Positions 9,401 to 60,995 of a stretch of DNA of 64,000 nucleotides are shown in pieces; position 1 is the first letter of the stretch, and each line of letters begins with the position of its first letter. Origin of the DNA: Minisyncoccota bacterium. GTDB lineage: Bacteria > Patescibacteriota > Minisyncoccia > Minisyncoccales > GCA-002788555. The notes under the pieces are model-generated. The model saw only the letters and a program-made list of their open reading frames with translations, did no database searches and had not been told where the DNA came from. The stretch lies in the NCBI GenBank assembly GCA_028716825.1, contig JAQUPA010000001.1:13071-77070 (forward strand), in the 5' to 3' direction. The position numbers and the translations under genes were made by a program.

Positions 9401-10594
9401 TTATTTCATTATTCCTGGCACCGATGGCTCTTGGGTAGAAAAATGCATTCCGTCGCAGAAGGTATTAAAGTCTCCCATCCCACATTGTTCCTTACAGAGC
9501 CCCCAAATTGGCCAGCCATGTTTTTCAAAAACCGTAGCTACTTCAGGAGTAACTTTATATGGTCCATTACCACAATCACCAAAATTATAATTTTCATTTA
9601 TATCACAAGCAATCCCAAAGCGATGAGCTGATATCGAAGATGAGTTGCCGGAACTAGCGCCTTGTGCTTCTCTGAAACAACCGAGGGTAACGATAGGGTA
9701 TTTCATCTTGGTAAGTTCTGAGAAAATTGATTTTAAACTACCAACAACCAATTTATGTGCTGTTATTTTTCTTTTTACTTCTGAAGTGCCATTCCAAACC
9801 GTAACCTCAAAAGTTTCTAAATATTTATTTACGGCGTTACCATTTCCTCCGTACGCACCAGAGCTTAACATTTCTTTTAGACTAGCATCTAGAGCAGCTT
9901 TATCAACGCTTTCTCCTGACACACAATCGTCATTTTTTAATAATTTATAAATTGTCATTGCGCCAATATTTGAATCAGCGTGAGTCATCCCACTGTCTAT
10001 GCAGCCGTTCCAAGTCATATTTTGGTGTTGTCCATCTAAAAGGTTTACCACATAAGGAGATTTGTCGTACGGAGTATTTTTTGGTTGTCCGGGGCAAGAA
10101 TTCCCGTTTTTATCTAGCCCATCTCTGTACATGTATCCTCTATTGTAAGCTAAAAATGCATATCCAATAGCATCATCGTTGGGGTTTTCATTCAACTCCA
10201 TTTTATATACTGATTTTGCTTTGTTTTTAAGAAAATTAGCAGCTGCTAAGGTTGCTTCTTCTAACGTGGTGTATACAGTGCCATTGTCGGGGTTTTTAGT
10301 TCCTAATTTTTCACCAGAGACTGGAGATTTTTCAGGACTGCAGCCTCCTTCTCTAAAATGAACCGCTGCTAACATTTGCCAAGGAATTCCTACTTGTTTT
10401 GCAGCTTCTTGATATATTGGTTTATTTTGTTCGATTTTTGCTTTAATATCAGAACTTATTTCTGCACCCGCTATTACTGTTTCAACACAATTTGCGTCTC
10501 CGCAATAATCTTGAGCAGAAGCCTTAATAAAAATTAGGATTGTTAGCATAGTAACAAAAAAAGTTAATAACTTAATTTTTGTTTTTCTCATCAT
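9401..10594 (-). CDS. secreted cell-wall hydrolase with a C-terminal M15 (VanY-like) peptidase domain
   Basis: Signal peptide. The C-terminus has SAHRFGIACDIN and HGWPIWG...DGMHFS, matching peptidase M15 zinc-ligand motifs (SxHxxGxAxD ... WGG...D.MHFE). The N-terminal region with GIPWQMLAAVHFREGG may be a second lytic domain. Confidence 0.6.
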   Translation of the reverse strand: MMRKTKIKLLTFFVTMLTILIFIKASAQDYCGDANCVETVIAGAEISSDIKAKIEQNKPIYQEAAKQVGIPWQMLAAVHFREGGCSPEKSPVSGEKLGTKNPDNGTVYTTLEEATLAAANFLKNKAKSVYKMELNENPNDDAIGYAFLAYNRGYMYRDGLDKNGNSCPGQPKNTPYDKSPYVVNLLDGQHQNMTWNGCIDSGMTHADSNIGAMTIYKLLKNDDCVSGESVDKAALDASLKEMLSSGAYGGNGNAVNKYLETFEVTVWNGTSEVKRKITAHKLVVGSLKSIFSELTKMKYPIVTLGCFREAQGASSGNSSSISAHRFGIACDINENYNFGDCGNGPYKVTPEVATVFEKHGWPIWGLCKEQCGMGDFNTFCDGMHFSTQEPSVPGIMK

Positions 10595-11685
10595 TTATTT
10601 AAAAGCGATCTTAAGAAGGTATGAGGTTCTAAAAGTTGGGTGGGTTTTTGGACGTCATTTCCATACCATTGTGTAGAATTGGTTGTTCCAGCTGTATAAA
10701 GCTCAAAATGGCACATCGCACTTCCTCCAGAGGTGTTTGCTATTATATTTCCAATGTGTTGGCCTGATTGTATTTCTTGCCCCATACTAACTAACGGAGT
10801 GATTTCTGTATAGTGCGCAACATAGTCTCCGTGGTTAATCATCACACTGTCAGTCCCTGCAAAAAAATTTTTTATTATCAAGACGACTTTTCCTTCTTTT
10901 ATGGCATAAACCCTACAAGCTTCGGGGGCAGAGGAGGGGTTTGTAATTATTGATCTTGGACAAGTGCCTCGGGGCACGGTTATATCTAAGCCCGCATGCC
11001 TTCTGCCGCCACTTCTTTGTGCTCCGAACATGCCTCCATCTGGGCAGCTGGCTCCCGAATTTTGAGAACTGCCTGGAGTATAGCAGGGAGGAGAGTTTAT
11101 TCTGTTAATTGCTTCTTGAGATGGATTTTTAACTGGGAATCCGTTTCCGCTTAAGTCAGTAGTTGCCCCGTTTGGAGTAGCACAGACTTCTGGCTTCATC
11201 ATTTCTCCAAAGCCCATTATAAACAGAGGAGCCATAATCATAGTGGCTGCGATTACCAAATAAAGTGTTCTTCTTTCTTTAAGAACAGAGATTACGTTTA
11301 TTGTCCACATTGGCAGGAGACCTCCTATAAAAGGTATTTGTTCTAAGATGAAAGAAACTATTATTTGTTTTAAGTAGGCTTTTGATTTTCCTAAGACGCC
11401 GCTTACCCTTTGTCCCTCGTCTTTTACCTTCTCTGCAGATTTTTTAACACTAGCAGGTCCTTTTGTTGGTGTAGCCCCATGACGTTTTAACCAAGTTCCA
11501 ATAACTATTGCAGCAATAAGATCTATAAAAACGCTTACGAAGGGTATTGATGCGCTTACAATTAGCTCAAAAAGATTCGCAAAAATATCTGCAAGGTCGC
11601 AGATTATTGCGAAAGTTAACATTATAAGAAAAATCGGGCTCAGAGAACTTACTTTATTTTCTTCTTGTTCCATAAAAGAAATCAA
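10591..11685 (-). CDS. membrane-anchored M23 (LytM-type) metallopeptidase
   Basis: Multi-TM N-terminus. M23 motifs RRHAGLDI, INHGDYVAHY and CHFELY (HxxxD, HxH). Confidence 0.7.
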   Translation of the reverse strand: MISFMEQEENKVSSLSPIFLIMLTFAIICDLADIFANLFELIVSASIPFVSVFIDLIAAIVIGTWLKRHGATPTKGPASVKKSAEKVKDEGQRVSGVLGKSKAYLKQIIVSFILEQIPFIGGLLPMWTINVISVLKERRTLYLVIAATMIMAPLFIMGFGEMMKPEVCATPNGATTDLSGNGFPVKNPSQEAINRINSPPCYTPGSSQNSGASCPDGGMFGAQRSGGRRHAGLDITVPRGTCPRSIITNPSSAPEACRVYAIKEGKVVLIIKNFFAGTDSVMINHGDYVAHYTEITPLVSMGQEIQSGQHIGNIIANTSGGSAMCHFELYTAGTTNSTQWYGNDVQKPTQLLEPHTFLRSLLNK

Positions 11686-23731: not shown

Positions 23732-23849
23732 AATTGAGAAGATTGACAGGAAAGAACTTTAAAAATTGAATTTACCCTATTAAATCCCGCAAAGCGGGAG
23801 CGACAAAGTCGCTATTCAATAGGGTAAGATAAGAATTTCTTTGGTGCGA

Positions 23850-26836
<2,987 letters not shown>

Positions 26837-26913: not shown

Positions 26914-26944
26914 ATTTAACAAGGTAAATTTTGAGCTCATTATC

Positions 26945-27051
26945 TTGGTGATAATACTGGGCGGGCAATACCTCTTTCCATCCCGAACAGAGAAGTTAAG
27001 TCGTCCAAGGCCGATGATATTGCTTTTGCGAGAAAGTAGGTCGTCGCCAAG
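26945..27051 (+). rRNA. rrf: 5S ribosomal RNA
   Basis: CTTGGTGATAATACTGGGCGGG...CCATCCCGAACAGAGAAGTTAAG...GTCGTCGCCAAG, flanked by the processing-stem inverted repeat GAGCTCATTATC / GATAATGAGCTC. Confidence 0.85.
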
Positions 27052-27073
27052 ATAATGAGCTCAAAGAAGAAAA

Positions 27074-49307: not shown

Positions 49308-50276
49308 TTATTTTTTTTCTTCAAGCTTTAATAGTCTCTTCCATTCTTTATTTACGATTTTTTGGAGTTCTTCTATTTTTTCAGGATAATCTTTCAAGTG
49401 AGCAAATCTTTTTTGCTGGTTTATAAATTCTTTAATTGGTTTTTCTTTTGCTGGTTTTATATTTACTATATATTTTCCATTTTCAACTTCATATAAAGGC
49501 CAGAAGTTTGTTTCTGTTGCAAGTTTTGAAATTTCAAGCGTTTTTGCGGGTGGGAATCCCCAGATTGTTGTGCAGGGGGCAAGTATAATTAATGCTGTTG
49601 GCCCTTTGGTCTCAATTGCTTTTTTTGCTTTTTTCTTTAAATCCTCAAGGTCATGGATTGCGGCCTGCGCAACATAAGGGCTTCTGTGTGCGACCAAGAT
49701 TTCTGTTAAATTTTTTCTTTGTTCTTCTTTGCCCTTTTTTACTTTTCCGGCTGGCGTTGTAGTTGTGTCAGCCCCCAGGGGGGTGGCCCCTGATCTTTGC
49801 CCGCCAGTATTTTGGTACCCTTCGTTATCATAAACTACCAAGGTAAAATCATGGCCCCGTTCAAATGCTCCCGAGATTGCCTGAAAGCCAATATCATATG
49901 CGCCCCCATCCCCGGCAAAAGCAACAAACTTTATTTTCTCTTCAAAGCCATTTTTCTTTCTGTATTTAAAAGCACTTTCAACACCTGCAATAGTTGAGGC
50001 AACATTTTCAAAGGCGTTATGTATGCAGGGGATATTCCAGGCATTATATGGATATATGGTTGAGGTAACTTCAAGGCACCCTGTTGCGACGCCAGCGACA
50101 ATGGGTTTTTCTGTTTGGGATAAAACATTATTTACAATTAAAGGGATTGCGCATCCCGCACAAGTTCTTCCTCCTGGTGAATATTTTGGATTATTCTTTT
50201 TTACTTCAGCCATGTTATTAGTTATTTGTTTTATGCTATTAGTTTTTTTACTTGATCCATTTGATTTTGTTATCAA
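49308..50276 (-). CDS. porB: 2-oxoacid:ferredoxin oxidoreductase beta subunit (TPP-binding)
   Basis: GDGG TPP motif (FAGDGGAYDIGF) and Cys ligands for the 4Fe-4S cluster. Confidence 0.8.
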   Translation of the reverse strand: MITKSNGSSKKTNSIKQITNNMAEVKKNNPKYSPGGRTCAGCAIPLIVNNVLSQTEKPIVAGVATGCLEVTSTIYPYNAWNIPCIHNAFENVASTIAGVESAFKYRKKNGFEEKIKFVAFAGDGGAYDIGFQAISGAFERGHDFTLVVYDNEGYQNTGGQRSGATPLGADTTTTPAGKVKKGKEEQRKNLTEILVAHRSPYVAQAAIHDLEDLKKKAKKAIETKGPTALIILAPCTTIWGFPPAKTLEISKLATETNFWPLYEVENGKYIVNIKPAKEKPIKEFINQQKRFAHLKDYPEKIEELQKIVNKEWKRLLKLEEKK

Positions 50277-51393
50277 CCTTCCCTTCTTTTAATTCTTTAA
50301 AAACTTTTTTAATATCTTTATCGTAAATATTTCTTCCTCCAAGACCAAAGACATATTTTTGCATTGGGATTTTATTTCCAAGTGCTTGTTTTATCTCTGC
50401 ATAAAGCGGGGGATTAGCTCCAAAAGAAAGGGACCTATCAAGAACTGCTATTGCTTTCTTGCCAGTTAAAGCTTTTTTTATTTCTTCGTATGGGAAAGGC
50501 CTGAAAATACGTGGTTTTAAAAGTCCTACTTTTTCTCCCTTTTTTCTTAATTTATCTATTTGTGCTTTTGCAGTTCCTGCAGTGGAGGACATTACAACAA
50601 TTGCATATTCTGCATCATCAAGCTGGTATTTTTCAAAATAATTATAGCTATTTCCCGTTATCTTTTTTAACTCTTCTCCTTCTTTTACTAAAATTTCTCT
50701 TGCATTTTCCATTGCTTCTTCCTGTGAAATTTTGAATTCAAAATATGAATCTGGCATTGAAAAAGGACCTACTAATGTTGGATTTTTAATATCAAGCAGA
50801 TTATAAGGCGGTTTATAACTTCCAAGAAAGTTTTTTATTACGCTATCTTCAAATAATTTTACCCTTTCTATTTGGTGAGTTGTTATAAAGCCGTCAATCA
50901 TTACCATGGCTGGCAATAAAACATTTTCATTTTTTGCAACTTTAAACGCCAAAATTAAATTTTCGTAAAATTCCTGAGCGCTTTCTGCATATATTTGAAT
51001 CCACCCAGAATCTCTTACCATCATTGTATCTGAATGATCGCAGTGAATGTTAATTGGAGCGGATAAGGCCCTGTTTGCAACTGGCATTAGGATTGGTAGG
51101 CGAAGACCCGAGGCGACATAAACAATTTCTGACATTAAAGCAAGACCTTGAGAAGAGGTTGCTGTCGCAGTTTTTACTCCCGCTGCCGCTGCACCCACTG
51201 CCGCTGACATTGCAGAGTGCTCGGATTCTACATTAATAAGCTCAGCGTCTGAATCTCCGTTTGCTACTATTTTTGCAAAGCCTTCTGCAATCGGAGATTG
51301 GGGAGTTATGGGATATACTGGAAAAACTTCAATTCCAATTTGACGCAAAGCCTCAGCACCAGCTTGTGCTCCAGATAAAGGTTTAATATTCAT
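50248..51393 (-). CDS. porA: 2-oxoacid:ferredoxin oxidoreductase alpha subunit
   Basis: 381 aa with a transketolase-like fold. Overlaps porB. Confidence 0.8.
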   Translation of the reverse strand: MNIKPLSGAQAGAEALRQIGIEVFPVYPITPQSPIAEGFAKIVANGDSDAELINVESEHSAMSAAVGAAAAGVKTATATSSQGLALMSEIVYVASGLRLPILMPVANRALSAPINIHCDHSDTMMVRDSGWIQIYAESAQEFYENLILAFKVAKNENVLLPAMVMIDGFITTHQIERVKLFEDSVIKNFLGSYKPPYNLLDIKNPTLVGPFSMPDSYFEFKISQEEAMENAREILVKEGEELKKITGNSYNYFEKYQLDDAEYAIVVMSSTAGTAKAQIDKLRKKGEKVGLLKPRIFRPFPYEEIKKALTGKKAIAVLDRSLSFGANPPLYAEIKQALGNKIPMQKYVFGLGGRNIYDKDIKKVFKELKEGKVDNKIKWIK

Positions 51394-51447
51394 AAATATG
51401 TTAAATGTTAAATCCTATAACTTAAAACTAAATCTTAAATGTTAAAT
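51394..51447. repeat. AT-rich repeat (AAATGTTAAATC units) flanking the four-helix-bundle gene, left arm
   Basis: TGTTAAATCCTATAACTTAAAACTAAATCTTAAATGTTAAATC is about 85% identical to 60880-60923. Confidence 0.6.
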
Positions 51448-51810
51448 CTATTTTTTGCCTCTTATAGTTATTAAGCTCGAGGCGATCATCTTGCTAATTT
51501 CGTTTGATTCTTTTATTAATGGTTCTAATTTTTTCTCAGTTATTAATTTACCATCTCTTAGAAGACAAAGCCAGTAAATTGTCTCGTTACAGCTTCTTAG
51601 AGCAATTTCGTAAAATCTTGAAAAATCTTTCTTAGAGCTTGCAGATTTTGCTTCAATTAAATTTGCTCCTATTGATGTAGCACTCCTCAATAATTGATCT
51701 GTAAAAATTAAATAAACTTTGTTTTTGGGAAAATCTTTTACAAAATTGATAATATCCAATGAAAATTTGTATGATCGGTAACGAATATTATTAGATTTCG
51801 GATTTGACAT
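51448..51810 (-). CDS. four-helix-bundle protein (23S rRNA intervening-sequence protein family)
   Basis: FPKNKVYLIFTDQLLRSATSIGANLIEAKSASSKKDFSRFYEIALRSCNETIYWLCLL matches the family pattern (FPK.E.Y.L..Q..RAA.SI..NIAEG..R.S.K.F..F..IA.GS..E). Confidence 0.75.
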   Translation of the reverse strand: MSNPKSNNIRYRSYKFSLDIINFVKDFPKNKVYLIFTDQLLRSATSIGANLIEAKSASSKKDFSRFYEIALRSCNETIYWLCLLRDGKLITEKKLEPLIKESNEISKMIASSLITIRGKK

Positions 51811-51842
51811 GTGGATATTGGATATAGGATTTGAGTTCTGAG
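51811..51842. repeat. AT-rich repeat, right arm (GGATATTGGATATAGGATTTGAG)
   Basis: Inverted orientation relative to the left arm. Confidence 0.45.
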
Positions 51843-52100
51843 TTATTCTTCAATCATTTTAATTGCTCCAGCGGGACATTTTTCAGAGCAAATTCCGCAG
51901 CCCTTGCAAAAGTCAGGATTAAATTTTATCTCATTTTTTTCTTTATCCAAAGAAAGGGAATTTTCAGGACAGGATTTTACGCATTGTTGGCAACGGATGC
52001 ATTTTTCATTGTCTATTTCCGGTCTTTGCGATTTCCAGGAACCTGTTTTGAATTTTTTGCTTGTGCCTGCTGGCAAAATTGGTAAATTTGGTTTTTCCAT
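51843..52100 (-). CDS. porD: 2-oxoacid:ferredoxin oxidoreductase delta subunit (2x[4Fe-4S] ferredoxin)
   Basis: CIRCQQCVKSCP and CKGCGICSEKCP. Confidence 0.8.
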   Translation of the reverse strand: MEKPNLPILPAGTSKKFKTGSWKSQRPEIDNEKCIRCQQCVKSCPENSLSLDKEKNEIKFNPDFCKGCGICSEKCPAGAIKMIEE

Positions 52101-52103
52101 ATT

Positions 52104-52493
52104 TTATTTTACAGCTTTAAAGATTTTTTTTCGATCTAAAAGCAGAAAGGTAATGGGAATAAGATATATAACTAAAAAAGATAGTAAGATAATTTTTATA
52201 GCTATAGAATTTTTTAAATAGTCTTTTAATATATAGAAGAAGTTCAATAAAAGAAATAACCCTATTGTTAGAACATAAAATAATGTTCCATACCACGCTA
52301 TTTTTTTCTTTTTTAATAAGAAAATACCACAAATTAAAGATATAATAAAATAAATAAGGCCCGCGATTATTGTTAATTCTCCTTTTAAAATTAAGGCAAG
52401 GAAAAAAAATCCATATATTATAGTTATCCACGCGGCAATTTTTGTTTTTATCGGTAAAGGATTTTCAGATTTTTTTATTTTTTGTTTTTCCAT
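52104..52493 (-). CDS. small polytopic membrane protein
   Basis: 129 aa with four hydrophobic helices. Confidence 0.45.
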   Translation of the reverse strand: MEKQKIKKSENPLPIKTKIAAWITIIYGFFFLALILKGELTIIAGLIYFIISLICGIFLLKKKKIAWYGTLFYVLTIGLFLLLNFFYILKDYLKNSIAIKIILLSFLVIYLIPITFLLLDRKKIFKAVK

Positions 52494-52547
52494 TTTTTAG
52501 ATTTCTTTACCCCGTTAAATCCCGCGGAGCGGGAACTGCTAAAACAA

Positions 52548-53162
52548 TTATTTAATGGGGTGAATTTGGTTATAACCCTTCTCAAGGGCTTTTATATTTT
52601 TTTCTAATATATCTTCTGGCAGAAATGAAAATTTTTCTTTAACTTCTTCTTTTATTGTATCAAGATCCAAAACATTTGTTGCCTTTAATATAGATCCAAG
52701 CATAGGAACGTTTGGAAGGTTTTTTTGGAAAAGGTCAAAAGAAATTTTTGTCGCGTCCACAACAAAAATTTTATATTTTCCGAAATTTTCTTTGATTTTT
52801 TCCTCTGGCATTGAAGAATTAAAAACTAAAATACCTTTTTCTTTGAGTCCATCTGTAAAATTAACAAGCCCAATTAAGGTATCGTCCAAAACTACAACAA
52901 CATCAGGATCTATTATTGGCTGGTTGCTTTTTATTTCCTCATTAGATATTTTTGTATAGTATTGGACAGGAGCGCCGGTTCTCTCGGGGCCGAATTCAGG
53001 GAAACTTTTTGCATATTTATCTGATCTTATTGCCCCGGTAGCTAAAATCTCAGCTGCGGTTTTACCACCCTGTCCTCCTCTTCCATGTATTCTTATTTGG
53101 AGCATAAATATAATTCTGATATAATGATTTATAATTTTAATATTTAAAAAGTCGCAAGTCAA
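52548..53162 (-). CDS. porG: 2-oxoacid:ferredoxin oxidoreductase gamma subunit
   Basis: HGRGGQGGKTAAEILA, as at the POR gamma N-terminus. Confidence 0.8.
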   Translation of the reverse strand: MTCDFLNIKIINHYIRIIFMLQIRIHGRGGQGGKTAAEILATGAIRSDKYAKSFPEFGPERTGAPVQYYTKISNEEIKSNQPIIDPDVVVVLDDTLIGLVNFTDGLKEKGILVFNSSMPEEKIKENFGKYKIFVVDATKISFDLFQKNLPNVPMLGSILKATNVLDLDTIKEEVKEKFSFLPEDILEKNIKALEKGYNQIHPIK

Positions 53163-59988: not shown

Positions 59989-60869
59989 AAAAAGAATTAA
60001 GAAATAAAAAATCCCAAAACAAAATTGGAGTTGTTGCAGATGATGTTTGTTCTTTACCAGAAGAATTTTTGAAAAAAAACAGAATAGAGATCGTAAAAAT
60101 GAGATTGTTTTTTGAAGAACTTAAAAAACAACCCGAAAAGGATATATATCAAATAATGAAAGAAACGAAAGCTTATCCTAAAACTTCAGCACCCTCGCCT
60201 GGGCAGTTTCTTAAGTCTTATAATAAAGCCCTTAAGATAAATGAGAAAATTGTTGTAATTACAATAAGCTCTAAGCTTTCCGGCGCTTTTAATACCGCGA
60301 ATCAAGCAAAAAAATTAATATCCATTCCTTCTAAAATTAATATAGTAGATTCATTTTCAGCCGTTGCCGCAGAGGGGCTTCTTGTTATAAAAGCAATTAA
60401 TCTAATTAAAGAAAAAAAAGATTTAAAGAAAATTAAAAATGAATTAGAGACTGTAAAAAAAAGAATAAAAATGTTTGCTTTTCTTGAAACAACTTATTGG
60501 GTAGAAAAGATAGGAAGAATTTCTAAAAAAAGAGCTTTCGGATTTAAATTTTTGAAATTATTTGGAGTGATGCCGATTATCGGCATAAAAAGAGAAGAGG
60601 TAGGTCTTGTGGGATTTAATTTCTGGACTACAAAAAATTATAAAGCAGTTTTTCATCAATTAAAAAAAGAAACTAAAAGGGCAAAAAAGCAATCAAAAAG
60701 ATTGATAGTTGGAATAAATTATACAGATAATAAGGACACAGCTTTTTGGTTAAAAGAAAAAATAGAAAGAAAACTTCAGGCAAGAGTCATTTTTGTGAGT
60801 ATGGTACCTTTAATTGTCGGCGCAAATTCTGGTCCCGGAACATTAATTGCAGCAAGTTATATAGAATAA
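59967..60869 (+). CDS. DegV-family fatty-acid-binding protein (FakB-like)
   Basis: SSKLSGAFNTANQAKK. Confidence 0.75.
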   Translation: MVLEKKIKKELRNKKSQNKIGVVADDVCSLPEEFLKKNRIEIVKMRLFFEELKKQPEKDIYQIMKETKAYPKTSAPSPGQFLKSYNKALKINEKIVVITISSKLSGAFNTANQAKKLISIPSKINIVDSFSAVAAEGLLVIKAINLIKEKKDLKKIKNELETVKKRIKMFAFLETTYWVEKIGRISKKRAFGFKFLKLFGVMPIIGIKREEVGLVGFNFWTTKNYKAVFHQLKKETKRAKKQSKRLIVGINYTDNKDTAFWLKEKIERKLQARVIFVSMVPLIVGANSGPGTLIAASYIE

Positions 60870-60870
60870 T

Positions 60871-60990
60871 AATCTCAAATGTTATATCCTATAACTCAAA
60901 ACCATATCCGAAATGTTAAATGTAACAATTGTAAAAAGATTTAAGATTTAACATTTGGATTTAAGATAAAGGATTTAAGTTTTAAGATAT
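60871..60990. repeat. cargo-less copy of the same inverted-repeat element
   Basis: AAATGTTATATCCTATAACTCAAAACCATATCCGAAATGTTAAATG ... GATTTAACATTTGGATTTAAGATAAAGGATTTAAGTTTTAAG. The inverted arms lie adjacent to each other with no ORF between them. Confidence 0.55.
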
Positions 60991-60995
60991 TTTTT

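Follow-up and report, generated by a model that had tools for sequence, protein, structure and literature searches.

Gene-containing intervening sequences (IVSs) of 23S ribosomal RNA (rRNA) have been described in the literature as selfish or possibly mobile. In Coxiella burnetii the IVS of the 23S rRNA gene is described as a selfish element with a 28-bp terminal stem that RNase III cuts in its middle; two or three tandem GACAGAT heptamers and a degenerate one are found directly before the ATG of its S23p gene, and the first cleavage site is the start of the first heptamer repeat (PMC4990558). Open reading frames (ORFs) of the 23S_rRNA_IVP family (PF05635) have been found in rRNA insertions of the Candidate Phyla Radiation (PMC11270868), and PF05635 is the commonest accessory domain of diversity-generating retroelement (DGR) loci (PMC10053308). 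The origin of the ORF-containing rRNA IVSs and the function of S23p have been open since the early 1990s, and likewise the meaning of the heptanucleotide arrays of cyanobacteria. Here we analysed a stretch of 64,000 nucleotides (nt) from a Minisyncoccota bacterium (GenBank assembly GCA_028716825.1, contig JAQUPA010000001.1, positions 13,071 to 77,070; from here on, the window), in which a PF05635 gene is placed between porD and porA of a por operon. To judge from its sequence, this unit is built as an ORF-type IVS is, at a site outside rRNA. The reading that we prefer is a layered one, to which we give a probability of about 60% with the proposed processing and spread included, namely that the unit is an IVS-type palindromic cassette outside rRNA. 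It would consist of a 7-nt array, a small basic four-helix-bundle gene (S23p/PF05635, a distant relative of the DGR protein Avd) and a reverse-complementary array. Our confidence is high for the family-wide architecture, moderate for the mobility of the cassette, and low to moderate for its processing by RNase III, which is proposed by analogy.

The gene (51448-51810, minus strand, 363 nt) is intact and conserved, and encodes a protein of 120 amino acids (aa) with an isoelectric point of 9.8. The original prediction, made from the letters of the window, had proposed a 360-bp gene of the four-helix-bundle/23S-IVS family at this place, and the family assignment was borne out by matches to PF05635 (E 2e-28, 99.2 bits against a cut-off of 33.8, residues 8-110) and to TIGR02436 (four helix bundle protein; E 4e-30, 104.3 bits against a cut-off of 24). 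When its profile was compared with the PDB, matches were obtained to 2RLD (E 1e-23) and 2GSC (E 5e-4), both structural-genomics depositions with five chains each, the latter being a homopentamer according to the literature. No other PF05635 gene is present in the window. The ratio of nonsynonymous to synonymous substitution rates (dN/dS) between the window gene and its homologue at locus L001 was 0.048, with synonymous sites near saturation, and 22 columns are invariant in an alignment of 39 homologues. The ORF is under strong purifying selection, and its product is a working protein and no decaying passenger.

On the 5' side of the gene, an arm of 32 nt (51811-51842, minus strand) begins directly after the porD stop and is made of degenerate A/C-rich heptamers (CTCAGAA CTCAAAT CCTATAT CCAATAT CCAC). 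In the gene orientation the register reads CTCAGAA CTCAAAT CCTATAT CCAATAT CCACATG TCAAATC, running into the ORF, and the first eight codons (ATG TCA AAT CCG AAA TCT AAT AAT; 51787-51810, minus strand) carry it on, so the arm overlaps the coding sequence. Tandem heptamers immediately before the ORF start are therefore a feature of the window copy, as described for Coxiella. N-terminal MSNxKS and repeated 'SNxKSQ' extensions are seen among homologues. The 3' arm (51394-51447, minus strand, 54 nt) is made of G/T-rich heptamers, which in the gene orientation read ATTTAAC ATTTAAG ATTTAGT TTTAAGT TATAGGA TTTAACA TTTAACA, and 5 nt separate its end from the porA ATG, the whole cassette occupying the entire porD-porA spacer in the same orientation as the operon. 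Arms of the 5' type and of the 3' type are found also at the homologous position in L001 and L086. The gene had been predicted to lie between degenerate inverted repeats; this stood for the 3' arm, which matches a second locus of the window, whereas the 5' arm is short and weak, and the units, degenerate as had been said, are better described as 7-nt arrays than as a conventional terminal inverted repeat. Because purifying selection is strong and the first codons are themselves heptamer units, the label of cargo given to the gene is uncertain, and the PF05635 ORF may be the element's own gene instead of a passenger.

A relationship to Avd is suggested by weak matches of the protein to DGR Avd models (NF033474, 24.6 bits; phrog_3206, E 3e-5), and the frequency of PF05635 as accessory domain of DGRs (PMC10053308) is in line with the view that the gene is an orphan Avd of a DGR, with the repeats as remnants of a template/variable pair. 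Against this, the NF033474 score is far under the cut-off of 80 bits, no reverse transcriptase is found nearby, and the flanks are 7-nt arrays, in such a way that this explanation is effectively refuted for the por locus and highly improbable.

The 3' arm of the cassette was matched by BLAST to both arms of the spacer between fakB and yifB, with 87% identity over 45 nt in one case (E 6e-7) and 84% over 56 nt on the reverse strand in the other (E 2e-6), and no other match to 51394-51447 was found in the window at E<0.1. A chain scan for heptamer-spaced TTT[GA]N cores, in which core spacings of 6-8 nt were allowed, detected chains of 6 units at exactly these two loci, together with one further window chain of 4 units; about 1.7 chains of at least 4 units per window were found in second-order Markov shuffles. 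A lag-7 autocorrelation over the window flagged nothing, because the window arrays contain 6- and 8-nt slips. With a genome at 35% G+C and window stems that are not significantly stable, it could be argued that two AT-rich spacers resemble each other by chance and that there is no element. This view is already refuted, and its probability is close to nil: E-values around 1e-6, the lack of any other matching spacer, the 6-unit chains at two loci only and the recurrence of the frame in unrelated contexts and phyla, described below, rule out generic AT-richness as the source of the similarity. From the window alone, the inverted-repeat frame is not statistically compelling, and it becomes so only through the homologous loci. 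As an example the window copy is weak and degenerate; what makes it of interest is the pattern that runs through the family.

This pattern was analysed in the two closest homologues and in 80 further loci (all labelled L001 and so on), the latter taken from genomes that represent species of Patescibacteria, Dehalococcoidia, Chitinophagaceae, WOR-3 and other groups; the homologous proteins are 47-91% identical to the window protein. The gene contexts are unrelated: the closest homologue (91%) follows a gene for a 2733-aa protein, and another (73%) is flanked by secF and a sigma-factor gene. In the two closest homologues, arrays of the type (CTCAAAT/CTCAAAA)n run up to the ATG and arrays of the type (GATTTGA/CATTTAA)n run past the stop. 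Among the 83 genes with complete flanks, an upstream A/C-type chain of at least 3 units was found in 67 and a downstream G/T-type chain of the same minimum length in 76; both chains reached at least 4 units in 43, and the opposite polarity was seen in a single gene. TCAAA is enriched 15-16-fold in both arms, and a core spacing of 7 nt is the commonest (431 cases, against 86 for 6 nt and 43 for 8 nt). In the 874 kb that were fetched the arrays are also concentrated around the genes, with 105 of 134 arrays of at least 5 units lying within 160 nt of one of the 87 four-helix-bundle genes. At the DNA level the arms have a median length of 50 nt and are 77% complementary, and the energy of the arm-arm duplex has z<-3 against shuffles in 40 of 81 loci. 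Since 21 nt equal three heptamers, the upstream array can be translated as a repeat peptide, and the N-terminal extensions of many homologues ('ISNVKSQ' and similar) are the translated upstream array. Co-orientation with both neighbours was found for 65 of 79 genes and opposition to both for none of them, and no fetched locus gave a match to 23S rRNA. Apart from the arrays, G+C-rich perfect hairpins were observed in or replacing the AT-rich arms at L015:2930-3000 (cctgcccgc...gcaggcggg) and L171:960-1030 (ccccgccctct...agagggcgggg), possibly members of another small family of repeats in these genomes.

The same frame was found on plasmids. A plasmid collection yielded 31 records, mostly of cultured cyanobacteria, and 12 loci were read, again mostly cyanobacterial, with others from Bernardetia, Treponema and Ca. 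Chlorohelix. The best period was 7 on both sides in all 12 loci, while the heptamers vary by locus (AAAATTC, AGGTCGG, AATTCGC, AAGTCGC, ACCAGTT, AGATTTT, AATTCGT, AATCGTA). In 7 of the 12 loci the dominant heptamers of the two sides are exact reverse complements of each other, and in 3 more they differ from this by 1-2 mismatches. Copy numbers of the two arms can be unequal: at L180 and L181, one arm has a few units and the opposite arm about 12 (hand count). What is conserved is the period of 7 nt together with the inverted complementarity, the sequence of the heptamer varying freely, and the frame architecture is a property of the PF05635 gene family across phyla. Plasmid genes were found wedged between co-oriented genes, such as drmD and the gene of an MmeI-type enzyme, those of a helicase and a DNA methylase, and those of a DUF1156 protein and a Swt1 HEPN protein; placements of this kind in defence-type operons, with clean heptamer arrays, are seen on plasmids of Planktothrix (L176), Dolichospermum (L173), Ca. 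Chlorohelix (L182) and Gloeocapsa (L183). The family has also been reported between cmr3 and cmr2 and in other cas loci (PMC3936711). The placement in defence operons may be an insertion preference, or may simply follow from the gene content of plasmids.

Frames without a gene were detected as well, the first of them being the window locus between fakB (DegV) and yifB (Mg-chelatase, YifB/ComM-type), where a similar gene-less repeat pair had been predicted and was confirmed. The spacer is filled by an imperfect palindrome (60865-60995) with 57-nt arms, 72% complementary, and a 17-nt loop. Its 5' arm (60870-60921, plus strand) starts after the fakB stop and holds a remnant resembling the ORF start, ATATCCGAAATGTTAAATG; the loop TAACAATTGTAAAAAGA (60922-60938, plus strand) takes the position of the ORF in gene-bearing copies, and GTAAAAAG at its end resembles the last ORF codons; the 3' arm (GATTTAA GATTTAA CATTTGG ATTTAAG ...; 60939-60995, plus strand) ends at the yifB ATG (60996). 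The palindrome also carries ...CTCAAAACCATATCCGAAATGTTAAATG..., which contains the ATCCGAAAT motif found at the start of the window gene, and about 27 of the 31 terminal bases of its 3' arm match the 3' end of the L001 element (hand count from the alignment). These resemblances suggest that the fakB-yifB palindrome is an internally deleted, gene-less version of the por-operon cassette. An orthologous hairpin in L165 keeps the loop and is 86.7% identical to that of the window, with flanking genes at 78% and their third codon positions at 60%; the hairpin would be either constrained or younger than its surroundings. A consensus fold of these two orthologous hairpins yielded a single compensatory pair at -8 kcal/mol, not enough to be taken as evidence.

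In the fetched loci, 29 arrays lie away from a gene, and many of them are ORF-less palindromes in genomes that also carry the gene, with two gene-less copies in the fragment of about 6 kb of L016, three in that of L009 and two in that of L037. Gene-less copies of L008 and L016 retain the first 25-40 nt of the ORF, fused directly to the 3' arm. One gene-bearing and two gene-less copies are found within about 2 kb in L016, and the two latter have one common internal junction at AAATTTRA, a short direct repeat near both ORF ends; this would mean copying of a derivative that already had the deletion, or else two occurrences of one microhomology deletion. At L084:2055-2288, in the porG-porD spacer, a gene-less palindrome of the GCAAAAT type is apparently nested in the loop of one of the CTCAAAT type; the GCAAAAT class is the one that frames the four-helix-bundle gene of L084 itself.

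The two window sites differ among close relatives. In 77 of 80 por operons from metagenomes porD directly adjoins porA, these orthologous operons lacking the predicted insertion, and an insert was detected only in the three closest relatives (porA 82-83% identical), L084, L085 and L086. At this junction L086 has the same cassette type as the window, L084 has a four-helix-bundle gene that is 50% identical and framed by other heptamers (GCAAAAT / CATTTTG), and L085 has an unrelated ORF of 179 aa (2422-2997), cysteine-rich with CxxC pairs, with no Pfam match and no arrays. Upstream of the insert, L085 and L086 share 99.8% identity over 2.4 kb, and downstream of it 99.1% over 0.95 kb; the similarity is lost at the porD stop and regained within the first porA codons, which points to a recent exchange at the porD-porA junction. 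In L086 an extra T in a T run (2740-2770), compared with L001, splits the four-helix-bundle frame; it could be a sequencing error or mark a pseudogene. Between fakB and yifB, the hairpin is missing in the closest relative found, L164 (DegV 87% identical), which has a 27-nt spacer ending in TTTTAAGTA, resembling the last unit of the arm; the orthologous hairpin is present in the more distant L165 (75%), and L171 (63%) has a different spacer. Both sites are therefore insertion-polymorphic among close relatives.

Gene-less copies and a patchy distribution in unrelated contexts, together with the palindromic frame, would also be explained by a non-autonomous transposable element acting at the DNA level, similar to miniature inverted-repeat transposable elements (MITEs) or repetitive extragenic palindromic (REP) sequences, whose arrays are recognised by a transposase or recombinase encoded elsewhere and whose gene is a passenger. 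Arm mismatches without a G.U bias, reported below, are what complementarity at the DNA level predicts; the gene-less palindrome of L084 is apparently nested inside another; and L001, the locus of the closest homologue, has a Y1 (IS200/IS605-type) transposase gene some 4 kb further downstream (10088-10801), with no heptamer arrays flagged in its surroundings. By contrast, no target-site duplication was found at any examined boundary and no transposase in or next to the window elements or most of the other loci; a passenger would hardly be one family across phyla, with its start codon within the arm and a dN/dS of 0.05, and tandem 7-nt arrays whose copy number varies are not usual as the termini of transposons. 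The original prediction had suggested for the locus a MITE-like element with the gene as cargo; a palindromic unit that also occurs without the gene was indeed found, whereas neither transposase nor target-site duplication was. We consider a transposable element of this kind unlikely.

Another alternative is a self-contained regulatory gene unit, in which the heptamers are operator or RNA-binding sites by which the protein regulates its own gene or the genes next to it, the gene moves only by ordinary horizontal transfer, and the gene-less copies are remnants or regulatory hairpins. The consensus heptamer common to the Patescibacteria loci suggests recognition of sequence, the protein is basic and related to the pentameric nucleic-acid-binding Avd, the higher identity of the L165 hairpin in comparison with its flanking genes suggests constraint, and the family is repeatedly wedged in operons (cas, DISARM, restriction-modification; PMC3936711). 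However, the heptamer is free across phyla while period and complementarity are kept, which favours structure unless protein and site co-evolve; the host operons are functionally unrelated; and the porD-porA junction differs between near-identical strains and holds different cassette types, which argues for a selfish exchangeable unit. A regulatory unit is therefore distinctly unlikely in our opinion.

According to the palindromic-cassette reading, the cassette would be co-transcribed within the por mRNA and its two arrays would pair as a long stem enclosing the ORF. By analogy with the rRNA IVSs of Coxiella, Leptospira and Salmonella, this stem would be a substrate of RNase III, whose cleavage would excise the cassette and split the operon transcript at that point. 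The protein, probably a pentameric nucleic-acid binder, would act on the arrays or on their RNA, and the unit would spread as a selfish cassette; one possible route is an exchange, by way of the repeat arrays, between palindromes already in place. Deletions between short direct repeats would give rise to the gene-less derivatives, which would then be retained as intergenic hairpins.

Several results weigh against this reading. The role of RNase III is drawn purely from analogy. The 5' arm of the window is short and degenerate, its best inverted match being 16 nt at 81%; the window arm duplex has z = -1.9 against shuffles, the full window element folds no better than shuffles (z = +0.5), and the gene-less hairpin has -20.9 kcal/mol with z = -1.8. 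No target-site duplication is visible at the L016 and L037 copies or in fakB-yifB compared with L164, no clean empty site was found, and no recombinase or transposase encoded in or beside the element was detected. The common deletion junctions of L016 could recur independently at the same microhomology. On the plasmids, the arrays of L175 (Treponema saccharophilum plasmid pTS1, about 1370-1970; CCGCTCT) are direct and not inverted, and the Bernardetia copy is unclear. Mismatches between arms were G.U in 156 cases and A.C in 136 (p = 0.27), with no excess of G.U, and therefore nothing favours an RNA structure of the sense strand over a palindrome at the DNA level; we take this test as uninformative rather than negative. 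Finally, in the Patescibacteria-centred set a 5' arm scores on average 49 with its own 3' arm and 40 with that of another locus, and its own 3' arm is the best partner in 6 of 81 loci, so that complementarity in this set would mostly reflect the common consensus heptamer. Covariation of the arms is not claimed within this set, the own-arm specificity being only modest; the case for it is built on the plasmid loci with their differing heptamers. A complementary G/A-rich array was observed further upstream of the L175 arrays.

Around the cassette, the por operon comprises, all on the minus strand, porG (52548-53162), porD (51843-52100), porA (50248-51393) and porB (49308-50276). These genes had been taken as otherwise contiguous, which does not hold, as a membrane-type ORF of 129 aa with no Pfam match (52104-52493, minus strand) separates porG and porD. 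This second non-por insert of the operon has several hydrophobic segments and lacks a frame of heptamer arrays; just upstream of it, within 52521-52541, there is an inverted repeat rich in G+C (cccgc..gcggg), and at its position L084-L086 have only spacers of roughly 150-235 nt. The neighbourhood consists of the por genes, the membrane ORF, an acetyl-CoA-synthetase-like ORF and an adenylosuccinate-lyase-like ORF, with no reverse transcriptase, and the window as a whole has a G+C content of 35%. Promoter and terminator scans of both window loci gave no signals above shuffles, and an Rfam scan of the window at gathering thresholds returned rRNA and tRNAs only, with nothing at either repeat locus. 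A scan of viral contigs found no relative, and PADLOC gave no match. The 120-aa protein, whose gene is the sole one inside the full-length unit, matched no transposase family, and a role in a toxin-antitoxin pair was set aside, as there is no partner gene. The 23S rRNA gene of the window (23845-26835) is complete and has no large insert; its 2991 nt compare with a model length of 2925, some 66 extra bases, and a 5S rRNA gene follows at 26944-27052.

The original prediction was thus largely correct, and the observation on which it was built is real. The gene family and the rRNA IVS were already known; what appears to be new is the general inverted frame of free sequence and period 7 at non-rRNA members, the gene-less derivatives and the strain-polymorphic junctions. 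An incomplete search of the literature found no description of an inverted heptamer frame around non-rRNA PF05635 members, nor of these derivatives or junctions. The frame provides a simple annotation signature for cassettes and gene-less relics, and the latter may serve as RNA-processing or stabilising hairpins in operons of the streamlined Patescibacteria genomes. If gene and inverted arrays are one exchangeable unit, rRNA IVSs are one special form of a more general element, the reported association of the family with cas and defence operons has to be re-read as insertions, and a 120-aa protein and a 7-nt repeat array form a testable pair. As to the period of 7 nt, a protein ruler, reiterative copying and register-free homology may be put forward as ideas. 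A wider conjecture, which we hold as tentative and would not bet on, is that PF05635 genes framed by inverted arrays of period 7 are one widespread, so far unrecognised class of selfish cassettes, comprising ORF-type rRNA IVSs, the genes wedged in cas, DISARM, restriction-modification and metabolic operons, and at least part of the short tandemly repeated repetitive (STRR)-type repeats of cyanobacteria, in which an Avd-like pentamer would read or make the 7-nt register, as a ruler or as a cofactor of reiterative copying, and so drive maintenance and spread.

When compared with known systems, the unit differs from integron attC cassettes, which were rejected because there is no integrase and arms stand on both sides of the gene. 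It shares with MITEs the imperfect terminal inverted arms and the presence of several gene-less copies per genome (as seen in genome fragments, with one in the window), and with REP sequences, bacterial interspersed mosaic elements and REPtrons the short intergenic palindromes, many of them gene-less together with a gene-bearing version framed by inverted repeats, and the location in spacers between co-oriented genes. Unlike MITEs, its arms are tandem heptamer arrays and the full-length unit has no cognate transposase; unlike REPtrons, the framed gene belongs to PF05635, whereas the REP-associated tyrosine transposase (RAYT) is a Y1 HUH transposase; and, unlike both MITEs and REPs, it has 7-nt tandem arms of variable number, not a single structured repeat, and no target-site duplication was found.

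Avd (bAvd) of the DGRs is a basic, nucleic-acid-binding pentamer. The window protein shares with it a homologous four-helix-bundle fold and a relation in sequence, whereas its locus has neither a reverse transcriptase nor a template/variable repeat pair and the protein falls below the equivalog cut-off; we know of no DGR Avd genes framed by heptamer arrays. Heterocystous cyanobacteria contain tandem heptanucleotide arrays in intergenic DNA, the STRRs, and the resemblance to these serves as a lead only. STRRs have been described as dispersed repeats and are not known to be linked to the PF05635 family; they are similar to the arrays found beside four-helix-bundle genes on plasmids of Nostoc, Aulosira, Dolichospermum and Planktothrix.

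The closest comparison is with the ORF-type 23S IVSs of Leptospira and Coxiella. The por unit lies in the spacer of a protein operon and not in helix 9, 25 or 45 of 23S rRNA, excision by RNase III is shown for the rRNA IVS whereas for the por unit it is inferred, and gene-less derivatives in ordinary spacers are absent from the published descriptions found in the incomplete literature search. The fit with rRNA IVSs that had been suggested for this locus agrees with the heptamers before the S23p ATG and the RNase III-cut stem of Coxiella (PMC4990558), and the por unit has in common with these IVSs a PF05635/S23p protein, an ORF enclosed by inverted terminal arms (which pair weakly in the window copy and clearly in many homologues), tandem heptamers of variable copy number before the start codon and a patchy distribution.

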